From: Candidatus Methylomirabilis lanthanidiphila
Lineage (GTDB): Bacteria > Methylomirabilota > Methylomirabilia > Methylomirabilales > Methylomirabilaceae
NCBI GenBank assembly: GCA_902196205.1
Contig: CABIKM010000041.1
Span: 1-22,456 of the forward strand
Direction of reading: 5' to 3'
DNA length: 22,456 bases
Shown: positions 3,680 through 9,637 of the stretch, piece after piece
Layout of the letters: every line of letters starts with the position of its first letter
Numbering within the stretch: position 1 is the first letter of the stretch
Translations under genes and position numbers: made by a program
The notes under the pieces: model-generated
Database searches by the model: none
The model's input: the letters and a program-made list of their open reading frames with translations, nothing else
Told to the model about the DNA's origin: nothing

Positions 3680-3789
3680 CGCCTGCGTAAAGCTGACGCA
3701 GACAGTCACGGATAGCGCCTATACGGCGACACCGCACCCATACAGACCCCACGCCACTGAGGCGGTCGCCAGACCGGCGAACCCCGTCT

Positions 3790-4347
3790 CTATTTAAAGG
3801 CATAGTTGATGTAGACGTGGTACCCCATGAGCAGCAACAGCGCCATGGATAATCCGACATGGGCGATGATCCATAACGGCCTGTACCAAGGCGTGTGGAT
3901 TTGGCCGATTTGGAAATTGAACAGACCGGTGAAGAAGGCCAGCAACAACGTCAGGCTGAGGATTTCGAGATATCCATAGCCCAAGACTTGGGAATGGGTG
4001 AAGAAAGCCAACGGGACCATGGCGCCGAACAGTCTGTGGCGACTCATCATAGTTGCCGCGTTGTGCTTCTCCCCTTGGGCGCGCTTCAAGGAAAAGCGCC
4101 ATTGATAAAGGATAAACGCAAACAATCCGAAGCCTGTAACGAGCTTATACGTATTGTTGTCTTGCAGTCCGGTCAACATGGTCCACTGCCGCCCGGTCGA
4201 TTGCTGAGCAATCAGGGCCGCCAACAGAAACAGACCCAGCCAGAAATATCCTTTAGCGGGCAAACCGGCTCGTAGAGCACCAAGCAGCGACGCCCTGAGG
4301 CGGTTGATGTCTTGCAGAAAGACCAGGCTTTTAACGCGCGAGGGCAA
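3790..4347 (-). CDS. Polytopic membrane protein (4-5 TM helices) with His residues inside the helices; possible b-type cytochrome or DUF4405-like subunit
   Basis: Hydrophobic segments: YFWLGLFLLAALIA, YKLVTGFGLFAFILY, HRLFGAMVPLAFFTH, YLEILSLTLLLAFFTGLF, LWIIAHVGLSMALLLLMGYH. I place the start at TTG 4345-4347, preceded by AAGGAGGGAGGG. That overlaps the upstream gene by 17 nt. The ORF-track start at 4506 would lie inside that gene. The start call is uncertain. Confidence 0.5.
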   Translation of the reverse strand: MPSRVKSLVFLQDINRLRASLLGALRAGLPAKGYFWLGLFLLAALIAQQSTGRQWTMLTGLQDNNTYKLVTGFGLFAFILYQWRFSLKRAQGEKHNAATMMSRHRLFGAMVPLAFFTHSQVLGYGYLEILSLTLLLAFFTGLFNFQIGQIHTPWYRPLWIIAHVGLSMALLLLMGYHVYINYAFK

Positions 4348-5200
4348 AGAACCCTCCCTCCTTGTTCGTTGCGGACCCCAATTGGGGCTTGTCTGCCAGC
4401 ACACTGAGCGCCGCCAAGGTCTGCGGAGCTGTGCGCTTGGCGATTTCTCCCATGAACACCTCAGAGCTCGGCAGGAAATAACCCTCGGCCGGCCAGTGTT
4501 CCCCAATGGCGGGAGGATCAGCGAATTTCCGCGCCTTTTCGAGGTACGCCTCGTAGGTATCCTTGAAGCCTTGGCGTAAGGCAGTGAGTGTCCGGAGCAA
4601 CTCGTCCATGGATATGCTACCGCTCGGGTACATCCACGTGGTCGCGCCCATCACATCATTGAGCTTCCAGTCGTGCTTGGGTGATTGTTCGTGTTTATTA
4701 TGACATTGGATGCAGCCCTCGACAACCGCTATGTCGGCGAACATGGCGACCTGCATTTGAATGTCGGGCATGAAGAAAAACTGCGGCTTGAGGGTTTGCT
4801 TGACCACCTGGAATTTTTCCAATTGCAGCCCCTCGAAGCGATTAGCCGAGTTGACGGGATAGTCCGAACCCAGAAACAGACTCAGCGGGGTCGGGTTCTT
4901 TTCCAGGCTTTTCGCCGTCTCGCGCAGGAACAACGCGGGCAAAGGGCCGGCCTCTACGTCCGCTTCGCGCCAACGTTCATCGAACTTCAACCCGGTCTGC
5001 TTACCCGCGCCGACCACTTCTTTGGTCCACATCGCGCGAACCACGTCGTTTTCCGCCTTGAGAATCTCAAACATCCGTTCTACCGGGATGGCCGCGTCGG
5101 CGGCGGTCTTCTCAGCCAATGGCGGCGGGGCACTGACAAACAGGTAGATGCTTAAGGCGCCCAACGCCAGGCAGGTGATCCAAAACTTTTGTTTAGCCAT
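4331..5200 (-). CDS. Periplasmic mono-heme c protein, Tll0287/DUF3365-like domain
   Basis: Start moved to ATG 5198-5200, giving MAKQKFWITCLALGALSIYLFVSA, a signal-like N-terminus. It overlaps the pentaheme gene stop by 8 nt. There is a single CIQCH motif followed by KLNDVMGATTWMYP, which resembles the family pattern as I recall it. Confidence 0.65.
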   Translation of the reverse strand: MAKQKFWITCLALGALSIYLFVSAPPPLAEKTAADAAIPVERMFEILKAENDVVRAMWTKEVVGAGKQTGLKFDERWREADVEAGPLPALFLRETAKSLEKNPTPLSLFLGSDYPVNSANRFEGLQLEKFQVVKQTLKPQFFFMPDIQMQVAMFADIAVVEGCIQCHNKHEQSPKHDWKLNDVMGATTWMYPSGSISMDELLRTLTALRQGFKDTYEAYLEKARKFADPPAIGEHWPAEGYFLPSSEVFMGEIAKRTAPQTLAALSVLADKPQLGSATNKEGGFFALAR

Positions 5201-5900
5201 CTTGACCTTGACCGTCCTGTTTGGCTTTATAGTGGAGATTTGTGCCGTAAGGAGAAGATCCGCCGTCAAAATAGGCGCGGATCTTCTCCGGCGGCGTTCG
5301 CTTCTCAACCGATTTCTCGATCTGCATGATGTGGTTGCCGTGAAAGTCGTGGCAGCCCAAGCAAGAGTCCCATTGCTTACGGGCGATCAGATCGGCATGG
5401 GGTACATCGATGGGATCTTTCTTCAAACGAGTGTCCTTATGGCAGTTCACGCAGTAGTCGATGGCCGTCAATGTGACCCGTCTGCCCTTGTGCTCAGCGT
5501 GGCAGGAGACGCACTGATGGGGGCGCAGCGTTTCCCGAGCTTGGCTAAAACGGGGTTCAAAGAAGCGGTAGACCGGGTGGCGGTCGTTTGGCCGCTCGTG
5601 ACAGGCCATACAGTCCGCATTACCCACGGGAAGCCGCCCGAAGAAGGCGGGCACTGCGCGCCGACCAAAGGCATGGCGAAGGTTGGCCTGAATCTGCTGG
5701 CGGAAGCTGCCTGGCGCATTTTTGTGACAGGCCGCGCAGCCAAGCTTACTGTGGCCTGTGTTCATGGGTCCTTTAGCGTGAAACCACTCCCCGATGCGAA
5801 GCACCGTAAACGCCGTGATCCCGAGTCCCACACAGAGGCCGACCAGATAGGCGCGGTTTTGCCACGTTCTCGGACCTCCAGCTTTCGCTCCCGTAGTCAC
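5193..5900 (-). CDS. Membrane-anchored pentaheme c-type cytochrome
   Basis: Five CxxCH motifs: CAACH, CMACH, CVSCH, CVNCH, CLGCH. N-terminal TM anchor AYLVGLCVGLGITAFTVLRI. GTG start. Confidence 0.8.
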   Translation of the reverse strand: MTTGAKAGGPRTWQNRAYLVGLCVGLGITAFTVLRIGEWFHAKGPMNTGHSKLGCAACHKNAPGSFRQQIQANLRHAFGRRAVPAFFGRLPVGNADCMACHERPNDRHPVYRFFEPRFSQARETLRPHQCVSCHAEHKGRRVTLTAIDYCVNCHKDTRLKKDPIDVPHADLIARKQWDSCLGCHDFHGNHIMQIEKSVEKRTPPEKIRAYFDGGSSPYGTNLHYKAKQDGQGQDG

Positions 5901-6095
5901 GACCTTAAGCTACGCGTGAGAAACTAATAGTTGATACATGAGACCTTACTCTATTTGCTGAATAACTGATCGGTGACAAAAAATAACCAAGGAACGCTTA
6001 TCCCTTGATGCTGGTCCAACACACATATTGATCCCGACAGCTACGTTCGTTCAACTAAGCCCAACACACGTCTAATGCGCTACCAATCCGGGCTG

Positions 6096-6482
6096 TCACC
6101 GACTTGACGTCCTAGTAAAGCTTCTGATATAGACCACCAGGTCCTTGATCTCGGGCTCGGAAAGCTTTAATTTATACGCGGGCATCCCCCCCTTGCTACC
6201 CTGCTTTATACTTCGAAAGAGGGCGTCATCGGACCGTGCTTGCATATAGGCCAAATCGGTCAAATCTGGCATCTTGAACATAAAAAAAAGTGCCAATGCC
6301 TGAAACCCGTTCCCCTTGCCGGTTGCACCGTGGCATCTGGCACATCTCGCCTCGAAGTTCGACTGTCCGCTTGCCGCGCCTTTGGTTTCCGCACCAAACA
6401 CGGGAGCAGCCTCCACAATGAGCAGCATCATTACCACCAATAACCACTGGCAACAAAGCCGATACAGAACACAAACGCGCAT
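6096..6482 (-). CDS. Class I monoheme cytochrome c, secreted
   Basis: Start moved to ATG 6480-6482, preceded by GGGAGGG plus 8 nt. Signal peptide MRVCVLYRLCCQWLLVVMMLLIVEAAPVFG; heme site CARCHG; distal GGMPAY. Confidence 0.8.
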   Translation of the reverse strand: MRVCVLYRLCCQWLLVVMMLLIVEAAPVFGAETKGAASGQSNFEARCARCHGATGKGNGFQALALFFMFKMPDLTDLAYMQARSDDALFRSIKQGSKGGMPAYKLKLSEPEIKDLVVYIRSFTRTSSR

Positions 6483-6580
6483 CTTAATATCCCTCCCATC
6501 AGTGTGAGTGAGTGGTGAATGATTATGAGCAATGGAATGTAACGAGAACGAAGTAAGGCAGCCTGACAATCTAGACCTAC

Positions 6581-6620
6581 AGAACAGGAGGAGGCCCGCC
6601 ATGGGGCTTCCTCCTGTTCT
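6581..6620 (-). terminator. 17-bp stem-loop between the 95-aa ORF and the cytochrome c gene
   Basis: AGAACAGGAGGAGGCCC (6581-6597) pairs with GGGCTTCCTCCTGTTCT (6604-6620); 16 Watson-Crick pairs plus one G-T position, 6-nt loop. It lies 27 nt downstream of the stop at 6647. No clear U-tract. Confidence 0.45.
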
Positions 6621-6646
6621 GAGAACGGCCGTAGTCACCAAGTCTC

Positions 6647-6934
6647 TCACTCGATCATTTGCAGGACCCGACTCTGGACATGAGAGGCTACTGTCATCAG
6701 CTCATTGCGAAGCTCCTTGCGCTCATCGAGGGCCAGAATCTTATCGAAGTTGCCGAAGTCGCCGACCTCAATCGTCACGATGCGCTCCAATTTGTTAGCG
6801 AGATGATCCCCGTAGACGTGGTACCTCGAGACCCCCGGATTCGAAAGCCAGAACTTCTTCATCTTGCCTGTCAAGAACTCATCTAACGCCTTTTCTTGTT
6901 CCGACTGAACCTCGCACATGATGTGGTAAACCAT
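6647..6934 (-). CDS. Small cytoplasmic protein of unknown function (95 aa); an alpha+beta ferredoxin-like fold is only a guess
   Basis: Clean ORF with AAAGGAGAAAGGGG upstream of the ATG and non-repetitive composition. I recognise no motif. Confidence 0.55.
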   Translation of the reverse strand: MVYHIMCEVQSEQEKALDEFLTGKMKKFWLSNPGVSRYHVYGDHLANKLERIVTIEVGDFGNFDKILALDERKELRNELMTVASHVQSRVLQMIE

Positions 6935-7207: not shown

Positions 7208-9637
7208 CTAGAAGGCCTCATCGCCGGCTGCCCAAGCTTCTCGCTCCTTCGCCTTCTCCTTATCGTAGATGGTCCATTCACCTTCCTCGACGACAGTAGC
7301 CTCACGGACCATTCGTCCTGCCCTTGACAGAATGAAATAGGCGAGCGGCAAGACGCCACCGAAGAGGAAGATCGCCCCACCGACGGTGCGCATCCACGTC
7401 AAGGTGATCCAGACATTATCCGTGACATGCGCCTGCGCTCGGGCAGCCCAGAGGCCTTGCTTGAAGACGGTCGCAACCTGGTACAGACCGACCGGGAACA
7501 GATCCAACATCATCATAAGCACCAAGCCGCTCTGCAGGGACCAGAACACCCCCTTAATCAGCTTCTCATTCCAAGCTGAGCGCTGGAACAGGTGCTGGCA
7601 CGCAAACAGCATACCGGCAATTGCGATGTTACCCTTGACGCCGAACATAGCCGCATGCGCATGGTTGCCGGTGAGGTAGGTGCCGTGCTCATAGTAGTTG
7701 ACGATGGGCAGGTTGATGAGCGAGCCGAAGACGCCCGCGCCGAAGATGTTCCAGAAGTTGACGGCCAGGATGAACGTCCAGACACCGTCCATCACGAAGC
7801 GCTGCTTGCCCTCGGCAATGTTTTCATAGGCCTTCACCCGCTCCGTCCGCATCTTCCAGGCATCCAGGGTAATCAAGAGCAACGGCAGCACCTGCATGGT
7901 GGAGAAGACGCTGCCCAGCGCGATGATCCCTGTTGGCTTGGCGATCCAGTAGAAGTTGTGGGAGATCCCGATCAGGGCGGTGACCAGGAACATCATGACG
8001 GCGAGGAAGATAACCCGCTCGGCCATGGCTCGGTTGACCAGACCCATCTGCACCAGCATGTAGCCCACGATACAGGTGGTGAAGACCTCGAAGGTCACCT
8101 CAACCCACATATGGATGTTCATCCACCGCCAGTAGTCCGCGATGGCGAAGTTCTGCGACGGGGTCATGAACATCCCGAAGAACAGGAACAGCACCATGAT
8201 GCCGCTGCCGTAGAACAGCCAAGCCGGCACCGACCAGAGGTTCTGGCTCGTGATCCACGGCTTCACGGCGCGGAAGATGATGAAGACCCACAGACAGAAC
8301 GAGGCCAGCATGAGGATATGCCAGAAGCGGCCGAGCTCCAGGAACTCCCAACCCTGGCTCCCGAACCAGTAGGCCATGTCGTCGCTGAAGTACCCGGTGT
8401 GGCCCAGATAGATGCCAAACAGCGCGCCGGCGCCCACGATCAGACACAACGTAAAGAGCAGGTTGATCAGGAAGCGCTGACCGTTGGGCACCTTGGAGAT
8501 CCTGGGCAGGAAGAAGAGGGTGTAGCCGACCCAGGCCATGAAGAACCAGTAGATCTGGACGATGGTATGCCAGCCTCTGGTAACGGTGAAGGGAATGGTG
8601 AATCCCAATACTGTGGTCGCGAGGGCGCTACCCGGTCCCCCACCGACGAAATCCTCTGCGCTCAGGATACCTGCCAGGACCTGCACCAGGAACAGGATCA
8701 CGGCAAACGCAAAGAACTTGTAGGTGGCACGCTGGGTCGGTCGCACATAGGCATCGCCCTTGTTTTCGAGGTCAACCGTGGTGAGCGACCAATCCCGCCC
8801 GTTGAACGGCTCGCCTGGCAGGGTTTTCATTTCACCGTACACATACAGGACCAGCATGGTGCCGCAAAACAGGACGAAGATCGAGATGAAGCTCCAGAGA
8901 TAGGTCTCGAACGTCGGAGTGTTACCGACCAACGGATCAGGCGGCCAGTTGTGGGTATAAGTATAGTCAAAACCCGGCCGATTTGCCCCCGAGACCCAGC
9001 CACCCCAGAAGAAATATCCTGCCAACGCCTTGAGGTCTTCAGGGTCGCTGATATGATTCTGGATTCGTCCCTTCATAAACGCTTCTTCATAGGTAGGATC
9101 CGTAAACGTCCGCGTGTAATGCGTGATTAACTCCTGGTACGCAAAGGCCTGCGCCGGATTGATTCGAATCAGGTTAGCCGCTTCGTCGTACCCGTTCTCG
9201 CGGATCTCTCGTCGTACCCTCACCGAGATCATGTCACGGTCGGCCTGAGTAACCGGACGATCTTTCGCGATCTCATTTTCGTAGAACTTGGTCATCGATA
9301 CATACGTATGGTGTAGGGCTTCTGCGGTGTAATCCGGCCCGCGTTCTCCTCCGTCGCCCCAGAACGAGCCATACGTCATCAGACCCTTCAGGTGGAATAC
9401 CTGCTTGCCACGCTGGATTTGCCACTCGGGAATCACCGTTTCTCCGGTAGATGACAATACATAATTAGTCAGTGGTGGAGCTGATGTATAGGTCCAGACA
9501 CCAAGCGCAACCAATCCGATAACACTAATACCGGTGACGATCGCAGCATGAAGCCACCAATATTTCTTTACCAACAACATTTGACCAAATGTTTTATGAC
9601 TCTTCGTGACCAATCCGCCCGAATGTGGACTCATCAT
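7208..9637 (-). CDS. nod: Quinol-NOR-like heme-copper oxidase with altered FeB and quinol sites; putative nitric oxide dismutase, copy 1 (809 aa)
   Basis: Start set at ATG 9635-9637 (CCGGAGGTACA-ATGATG). N-terminal TM helix, then a ~200-aa periplasmic domain without CxxCH, then the HCO core. Motifs: GWHTIVQIYWF, IHMWVEVTFEVF, GISHNFYWIAKP (His-Asn instead of His-His), STMQVLP, GNHAHAAMFG. Confidence 0.9.
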   Translation of the reverse strand: MMSPHSGGLVTKSHKTFGQMLLVKKYWWLHAAIVTGISVIGLVALGVWTYTSAPPLTNYVLSSTGETVIPEWQIQRGKQVFHLKGLMTYGSFWGDGGERGPDYTAEALHHTYVSMTKFYENEIAKDRPVTQADRDMISVRVRREIRENGYDEAANLIRINPAQAFAYQELITHYTRTFTDPTYEEAFMKGRIQNHISDPEDLKALAGYFFWGGWVSGANRPGFDYTYTHNWPPDPLVGNTPTFETYLWSFISIFVLFCGTMLVLYVYGEMKTLPGEPFNGRDWSLTTVDLENKGDAYVRPTQRATYKFFAFAVILFLVQVLAGILSAEDFVGGGPGSALATTVLGFTIPFTVTRGWHTIVQIYWFFMAWVGYTLFFLPRISKVPNGQRFLINLLFTLCLIVGAGALFGIYLGHTGYFSDDMAYWFGSQGWEFLELGRFWHILMLASFCLWVFIIFRAVKPWITSQNLWSVPAWLFYGSGIMVLFLFFGMFMTPSQNFAIADYWRWMNIHMWVEVTFEVFTTCIVGYMLVQMGLVNRAMAERVIFLAVMMFLVTALIGISHNFYWIAKPTGIIALGSVFSTMQVLPLLLITLDAWKMRTERVKAYENIAEGKQRFVMDGVWTFILAVNFWNIFGAGVFGSLINLPIVNYYEHGTYLTGNHAHAAMFGVKGNIAIAGMLFACQHLFQRSAWNEKLIKGVFWSLQSGLVLMMMLDLFPVGLYQVATVFKQGLWAARAQAHVTDNVWITLTWMRTVGGAIFLFGGVLPLAYFILSRAGRMVREATVVEEGEWTIYDKEKAKEREAWAAGDEAF

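Follow-up and report, generated by a model that had tools for sequence, protein, structure and literature searches.

Three adjacent genes for putative heme proteins, here called open reading frame 1 (ORF1), ORF2, and ORF3, lie on the minus strand of a 22,456-nucleotide (nt) stretch of DNA from Candidatus Methylomirabilis lanthanidiphila (contig CABIKM010000041.1, positions 1 to 22,456; "the window" below), behind two nitric oxide (NO) dismutase-type (nod) genes. They encode a pentaheme cytochrome c, a monoheme cytochrome c, and a polytopic membrane protein, respectively. The trio is a real, conserved, and unnamed unit. We postulate, with a confidence only a little above even, that its products form one self-contained membrane complex with about eight hemes that moves electrons from the cytoplasmic side of the membrane to the periplasm. 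A first-pass annotation of the window, made from the DNA alone, had already described the heme genes as a possible compact complex of unrecognized composition; its observation is confirmed, and its interpretation is partly supported. No paper describing the trio or naming DAMO_2429 to DAMO_2433 was found in a literature search, and the comparative-genomics papers and those on nod are silent on these genes.

The three genes travel together. Among 80 metagenome loci fetched with an ORF2 profile, ORF1 was found upstream in all 62 that could be tested (those with at least 650 nt of upstream sequence), and an ORF3-family gene was found in all 36 that were covered on both sides. Altogether, 68 of the metagenome loci had an ORF3-family gene, which was a stand-alone ORF3 downstream in 57 and a fused ORF3 upstream in 11. 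In the taxonomic order of G251, a 5.4-Mb metagenome-assembled genome (MAG) labeled Methylococcaceae, the ORF3 profile matched 27 of 301 genomes, and at least 16 of the 20 best loci had all three genes. The flanks of the trio loci that we compared vary, and no conserved fourth partner gene was found among them. This near-invariable co-occurrence, which the first-pass annotation had named as a test of its proposal, bears out the idea of a compact, unnamed heme electron-transfer unit. Gene spacing is conserved as well: ORF1 and ORF2 overlap by 8 nt and ORF2 and ORF3 by 17 nt, in agreement with the coordinates first reported, and overlaps of 8 and 17 nt or 11 and 17 nt recur in 21 homologous loci of other genomes, with the 17-nt ORF2/ORF3 overlap kept in most homologous loci.

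A second line of evidence comes from gene fusions. Many relatives bear the ORF3 domain at the C terminus of a larger protein. In three genomes of G251's order (G261, G369, and G497, two of them assembled as single contigs of ~4.7 to 5.0 Mb) and in the 11 metagenome loci with a fused ORF3, the gene directly upstream of the ORF1 and ORF2 homologs encodes an N-terminal BFD[2Fe-2S]-FAD_binding_6-NAD_binding_1 module followed by a C-terminal ORF3 domain; some fused relatives carry two extra cyclic nucleotide monophosphate (cNMP)-binding domains at the front. The same three-component system therefore exists in a form whose cytoplasmic NAD(P)H reductase is built in. The fusions are the strongest evidence that we have on direction, and they point to electron entry into ORF3 from the cytoplasm and exit toward the c hemes.

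Four histidines of ORF3, H104 (SRHRLFG), H118 (FFTHSQ), H163 (IIAHVG), and H177 (GYHVY), are invariant in 64 relatives, down to ~25% identity, and again in 48 sequences that were collected independently as a second set. They are arranged as an H-x13-H pair on transmembrane (TM) helix 3 (H104/H118) and another on TM5 (H163/H177). Close homologs are few (24 clusters at 57 to 99% identity, all of ~185 amino acids [aa]), and a genome-locus search with ORF3 alignment A1 returned only 3 loci; a profile search of 1.84 billion representative proteins recovered 374 clusters at an E value of ≤1e-3, 256 of them at ≤1e-10. Lysine plus arginine counts per sequence were 6.5 in the N-terminal tail, 5.4 in loop 2-3, and 2.6 in loop 4-5, compared with 2.1, 0.2, and 0.2 on the opposite side. 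By this positive-inside pattern ORF3 has its N terminus in the cytoplasm and its C terminus outside, which puts one histidine of each pair close to the cytoplasmic face (H104 and H163) and the other close to the periplasmic face (H118 and H177), the geometry that would be expected for two stacked bis-His b hemes. An AlphaFold2 model built from 48 diverse sequences (predicted local distance difference test [pLDDT], 91.7; predicted template modeling score, 0.80) has five TM helices and an N-terminal amphipathic helix; an earlier prediction from 22 close sequences had been poor (pLDDT, 59.6). We conclude that ORF3 is a probable di-heme b transmembrane conduit. The first-pass annotation had seen the four histidines inside TM helices and had asked that orthologs keep them, as both sets of relatives do; its count of four to five helices is refined here to five plus the amphipathic helix.

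Family searches with ORF3 gave weak similarities at best. Against DUF4405 (PF14358) it scored 15.2 bits, below the cutoff of 26.7; weak matches over TM4-TM5 occurred in 18 of 22 close homologs (E values of up to 10; best, 4.9e-4), and 4 of the 48 diverse members matched at E values of ≤0.01 (best, 1.9e-4), all of them subthreshold. DUF4405 has been shown experimentally to bind heme b and has been proposed to be a transmembrane electron carrier (10.1101/2024.03.13.584918). Like DUF4405 and the PepSY-like/FoxB-type membrane cytochromes, ORF3 is a small polytopic protein in which four central TM histidines are the most conserved residues, but it has five TM helices rather than six, and its partners are c-type cytochromes rather than ApbE-flavinylated proteins. 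Similarity of the ORF3 family to Ni_hydr_CYTB was likewise subthreshold only, as were matches to prokaryotic cytochrome b561 (PF01292) in 4 of 22 members, which leaves ORF3 outside that family. No ORF3-family match to the ferric reductase domain (PF01794) was found at E values of ≤10. ORF3 had no match to cytochrome b/bc1, as expected from the initial remark that the trio is not a bc1-type complex.

Several results weigh against an outward-conducting heme complex. Heme b binding in particular is put in question by four of them: no Pfam or NCBIfam family matched ORF3 above threshold; profile alignment by hhalign gave probabilities of only 0.1% with Escherichia coli MsrQ and 0.15% with E. coli YodB; a PDB sequence search returned no match; and a Foldseek search of the ORF3 model against the PDB found no fold match (best E value, 1.4). 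What suggests a physical association of the three proteins is operon structure alone. Moreover, the fused reductase module has no homolog in the source genome, so the case for a direction driven by NAD(P)H comes from relatives.

The last point also favors another explanation, namely, that ORF3 oxidizes membrane quinol, as CymA, NapC, and NarI-like proteins do in function, and feeds the c hemes with no electrons drawn from the cytoplasm. Many di-heme b subunits are quinol oxidases, and in the source genome, as in 57 of the 68 loci, ORF3 is a separate gene without a gene for a cytoplasmic partner in its vicinity. The complete NAD(P)H-FAD-[2Fe-2S] (FAD, flavin adenine dinucleotide) module joined to the ORF3 domain within the same operon, in the 11 metagenome loci and 3 genomes described above, points to NAD(P)H as the donor and makes a quinol site unnecessary, however, and no quinone-site motif was identified. 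We regard a quinol dehydrogenase as unlikely, while giving it real weight.

ORF1 combines a hydrophobic helix at its N terminus with exactly five CxxCH motifs, as the first-pass annotation reported, and five were also counted in 21 of 21 homologs checked. Six further histidines are invariant (H50, H108, H137, H168, H187, and H190); together with the five CxxCH motifs, they are enough for five bis-His hemes, as in a wire. We suggest that ORF1 is probably a periplasmic five-heme bis-His wire. Small residues in its TM helix (Y18, G21, and G25) are at least 80% conserved. Its only Pfam matches were to Paired_CXXCH_1, c7, and c3. ORF1 did not match PF03264 (NapC/NirT), and its scores against the NrfB equivalog models TIGR03146 (25.3 bits; cutoff, 166.6) and NF008659 (17 bits; cutoff, 184) fell far short, so that the early judgment that it is not a NapC/NrfH protein stands. 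ORF1 resembles NapC/NirT/NrfH/CymA and NrfB in being a small multiheme cytochrome c, a type that is membrane anchored or periplasmic and links the membrane to periplasmic reductases. It differs from NapC/NirT/NrfH/CymA in having five hemes instead of four and a separate b-type membrane subunit beside it.

ORF2 belongs to the Tll0287-like family, with 35.5 bits against Pfam PF11845 (cutoff, 24.1) and an alignment of residues 123 to 225 of its long reading frame with profile positions 35 to 141 of 144. Its single heme motif, CIQCH, is part of a larger invariant motif, C163-x-x-C166-H167-N168-x-H170, and C163, C166, and H167 are invariant in 29 homologs. The homolog alignment contains no conserved cysteine beyond the CxxCH in the mature part of the protein, and ORF2 therefore cannot have the Cys/His ligation of Tll0287, which depends on a distal cysteine. 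The N-terminal hydrophobic segment is conserved (L16, Y19, L20, A24, and a PPP run) and seems likelier to be an uncleaved anchor in the membrane than a signal peptide that is cleaved off; its conservation suggests that the anchor packs against partner proteins. At the other end is a conserved extension of ~100 aa. The subfamily is large and very well conserved (1,294 homolog clusters at E values of ≤1e-20), and searches of PDB sequences with ORF2 returned no match. The initial reading of ORF2 as a Tll0287-like protein with one CIQCH thus holds, and its description as a secreted protein gives way to that of a protein probably anchored in the membrane by its conserved N terminus. ORF2 is the probable terminal heme site of the complex. 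Longer forms exist: homologs P0251 and P0280 (393 to 415 aa) have an extra N-terminal PF13464 domain, and two metagenome loci (L099 1957-3321 and L100 2884-4842) have ORF2 reading frames of ~450 to 650 aa.

The Tll0287/DUF3365 family was recently redefined as sCache_heme (10.64898/2026.02.01.703092). In that study, members fused to signaling domains bound NO tightly, whereas NO binding by one stand-alone member, with a redox potential of +123 mV, was weak; about half of the family consists of stand-alone proteins, which do not have the signaling-partner neighborhoods known for H-NOX or NosP, so that their functions are hard to delineate (10.64898/2026.02.01.703092). ORF2 has the CxxCH and a score above the Pfam threshold in common with the sCache_heme family (Tll0287, GSU0582, GSU0935, and the Pseudomonas putida and P. 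azotoformans proteins), and it shares the stand-alone form with about half of that family. It differs in lacking the distal cysteine of Tll0287, in having a conserved anchor and the C-terminal extension, and in being too divergent to recover any PDB sequence. The ORF2 subfamily also differs from other stand-alone members in its strict neighborhood with ORF1 and ORF3, made up of redox rather than signaling genes.

Since the sCache_heme family includes true NO sensors, the trio could in principle be a periplasmic NO or redox sensor in which the Cache heme of ORF2 senses and signals through its membrane partners. The missing distal cysteine would be compatible with such a role, as would the presence in the window of nod and of a PAS-LuxR regulator close to the trio. 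Yet ORF2 has no cytoplasmic output domain, and no kinase, methyl-accepting chemotaxis protein, or cyclase gene is conserved beside the trio in the loci compared; because no signaling output domain or gene is conserved there, a pure sensing role is unlikely. Nor would a sensor readily account for a wire of five hemes, a membrane protein with four histidines, or the fusion to an NAD(P)H reductase. All told, we judge the sensor explanation to be improbable.

In the electron-export complex that we favor, ORF3 would hold two b hemes between TM3 and TM5, one near each membrane face, and would pass electrons from the cytoplasmic to the periplasmic side. The membrane-anchored pentaheme ORF1 would carry them onward as a bis-His wire to ORF2, the membrane-anchored Cache-fold monoheme protein, which would be the end point, either as a reactive or catalytic heme for a small molecule or as a docking site for another acceptor. 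Of this picture, the conservation of the genes and motifs, the fusions, and the ORF3 topology are shown by the data, whereas heme b binding, the direction of flow, assembly into a complex, and the substrate are inferences. In relatives the donor appears to be built in, as the [2Fe-2S]-FAD-NAD(P)H module fused before the ORF3 domain; in the source genome, where ORF3 is alone, the donor could be quinol or an unlinked cytoplasmic reductase. The end function could correspondingly be reduction of a small oxidant at the ORF2 heme or relay to another acceptor. A more specific version is improbable, but we mention it for its implications: the ORF2 heme would be catalytic, making the trio a periplasmic reductase of a new kind with a NOX-like transmembrane heme chain. 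Methylomirabilis would then have captured it from methanotrophs among the Gammaproteobacteria, and its site behind nod would reflect a substrate that escapes from the dismutase, either NO or else O2 or a species derived from O2.

Electrons might also run inward, with ORF2 oxidizing a periplasmic substrate and ORF1 and ORF3 delivering the electrons to the quinone pool. A heme chain is reversible in principle, and small periplasmic heme c enzymes that oxidize nitrogen compounds are known in methanotrophs. To our knowledge, however, ferredoxin-NADP+ reductase (FNR)-type NAD(P)H/FAD/[2Fe-2S] modules are donors to heme in every characterized analog (NOX, FRE, flavohemoglobin, and Fre-MsrQ), and the module fused to the ORF3 domain in relatives is of this donor type. 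Inward flow is, in our view, very remote.

The logic of electron export by the trio would be, by analogy, that of NOX/FRE and of the Fre-MsrQ-MsrP system, of which ORF3 is not a detectable member. In NOX/FRE, and in MsrQ (YedZ), which works with Fre and MsrP, two histidine pairs on two TM helices, spaced 13 residues apart as in ORF3, serve two stacked b hemes. The features that define ferric reductases, two bis-His pairs on nonadjacent TM helices and association with an FAD/NAD(P)H module, are both represented, the association in relatives of ORF3 and in reverse order. NOX/FRE proteins and the ORF3 relatives are alike in that the FAD/NAD(P)H module is joined to the heme domain, and they would be alike in passing electrons to an extracytoplasmic acceptor. 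The reductase module is C-terminal in NOX/FRE, whereas in the fused relatives it is N-terminal and includes the BFD [2Fe-2S] domain, and ORF3 has no detectable sequence or profile similarity to NOX/FRE/MsrQ and no Foldseek match in the PDB. The acceptor side is new: the trio has a six-heme c-type pair in place of the O2, Fe(III), or molybdoenzyme served by NOX/FRE/MsrP.

The closest relatives of the trio outside the genus Methylomirabilis share 70 to 76% identity in ORF1, 75 to 81% in ORF2, and 55 to 60% in ORF3, while the proS genes of the same organisms encode proteins only 45 to 47% identical to that of the source genome. There, the trio sits between proS and an NlpC/P60 gene. Among these relatives, G251 carries pmoA, and nod was not found in it. 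Named ORF2 matches were to Methylococcales, Methylococcaceae, Methylomicrobium, and Gammaproteobacteria, and in the ORF2 tree, the Methylomirabilis sequences group as a shallow clade, with the G251 group as sister, nested among the sequences of G251's order (support, 99/99 and 100/99). These relationships suggest that Methylomirabilis probably acquired the trio by horizontal transfer from a Methylococcales-like lineage; since the tree was rooted at the midpoint only, this direction is suggested rather than proven. We rejected methanotrophy as the defining association of the module: pmoA was present in 7 of 10 trio-bearing genomes tested and absent from the other 3, and the module is rare on the whole, occurring in 2 of 400 other genomes in an even sample of G251's phylum. 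In the G251 group, a TIR-domain gene pair and a PEMT-like gene lie beside the trio, between proS and an AhpC gene (L001 5666-6521 and L006 5468-6326).

One further locus type involves the ORF3 family on its own. In G356 (locus L058 [G356:C18] 8007-9518), an ORF3-family gene without ORF1 or ORF2 directly follows a DUF3050/HamA_HO-like gene that is split into two frames, and in L048 (5107-5919) the trio, too, has a HamA_HO-like gene immediately upstream. The HamA_HO-like gene may be a second type of partner for ORF3-family proteins.

Within Methylomirabilis, we compared 20 species genomes; 13 had nod-like genes, 7 had the trio, and all 7 trio-bearing genomes also had nod. In six of them (G000, G052, G058, G062, G057, and G067, the source genome included), the trio lies behind the nod pair, in the same orientation. 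These patterns could be taken to mean that the trio is a dedicated partner of the NO dismutase, giving Nod electrons or handling NO or O2 for it. Against this, G053 (99% complete, 20 contigs) has both nod genes, and the trio was not found anywhere in its genome; in G049 the trio lies on a contig other than that of nod and in a different gene context; and the trio occurs without nod in G251 and in other genomes of its order. In both G053 (L024, G053:C19, 6035-9420) and G049 (L025, G049:C18, 7884-11324), the second nod gene is followed by convergent nadE after a gap of ~100 to 170 nt, which identifies the intervening ~3.5-kb block (the 95-aa gene, the cytochrome c gene, and the trio) as an insertion or deletion at an exact junction. 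In the window, a terminator-like hairpin also precedes ORF1. A dedicated Nod partner is thus very improbable in our estimation, and we rejected the trio as a set of conserved nod accessory genes. The first-pass annotation had attached significance to the position after nod; neither the distribution of the two gene sets within the genus nor the proS-NlpC/P60 setting of the closest outside relatives, in a genome without nod, sustains that view. The adjacency is a local, lineage-specific arrangement in part of the genus and not a conserved functional link.

The coordinates of the trio and of nearby sequence signals are given in Table 1. The same-strand genes upstream of the trio encode a monoheme cytochrome c, a 95-aa ORF, two quinol-dependent nitric oxide reductase (qNOR)-like nod paralogs, and the PAS-LuxR regulator, and nadE converges on the trio from the downstream side. 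The hairpin upstream of ORF1 may separate the trio transcript from that of nod and cytochrome c; no such hairpin occurs at the equivalent place in G052, and its function is therefore uncertain.

Table 1. Positions in the window of the trio genes and of associated sequence signals
Feature	Position	Strand	Remarks
ORF1, pentaheme cytochrome c, one N-terminal TM helix	5193..5900	-	GTG start, 235 aa
ORF2, monoheme cytochrome c, Tll0287-like/sCache_heme, N-terminal anchor, ~100-aa C-terminal extension	4331..5200	-	ATG start, 289 aa
ORF3, five-TM four-His protein	3790..4347	-	TTG start, 185 aa
Shine-Dalgarno-like GGGAGGG, 4 nt 5' of the ORF3 TTG, within the end of ORF2	4352..4358	-	Sequence read directly
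Terminator-like hairpin and T-run, between the monoheme cytochrome c gene and ORF1	5986..6009	-	Consensus scan
Terminator-like hairpin, 86 nt past the ORF3 stop, at the convergent nadE end	3680..3704	-	Consensus scan only

Gene order between nod and the trio varies among the species. It is nod, 95-aa gene, cytochrome c gene, and trio in the window (6096-6934) and nod, cytochrome c gene, 95-aa gene, and trio in G052, G058, and G062, while in G057 and G067 the 95-aa gene is missing from the interval between the cytochrome c gene and the trio; the differences are located at L018 10502-11443, L015 1493-1906, and L022 1039-1419. The match to a nod paralog contains one in-frame stop in G058 (TAG, G058:C9:62151-64628) and one in G049 (TAA, G049:C18:15856-18333); both are near the 5' end of the match, and the true start may lie after them. 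A record titled "Patescibacteria group bacterium" (L016, DATMXF010000229.1) contains a full Methylomirabilis nod-trio-nadE region with 77 to 96% protein identity. It corresponds to the stretch in G062:C229, and its label looks wrong.

For the biology of Methylomirabilis, the outcome is mainly negative but useful. The heme genes that follow nod form an accessory block, which some species with nod lack, and they are no evidence that Nod needs electrons; since Nod-bearing species without the trio exist, the trio lends no support to the idea that the dismutase requires an electron donor. For the sCache_heme family, a stand-alone subfamily now has a strict redox neighborhood, consisting of a putative pentaheme wire and a membrane protein with four invariant histidines, to which an NAD(P)H reductase is fused in relatives. 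This neighborhood yields a concrete, testable model of a widespread, unnamed module, which would act as an eight-heme electron-export chain.

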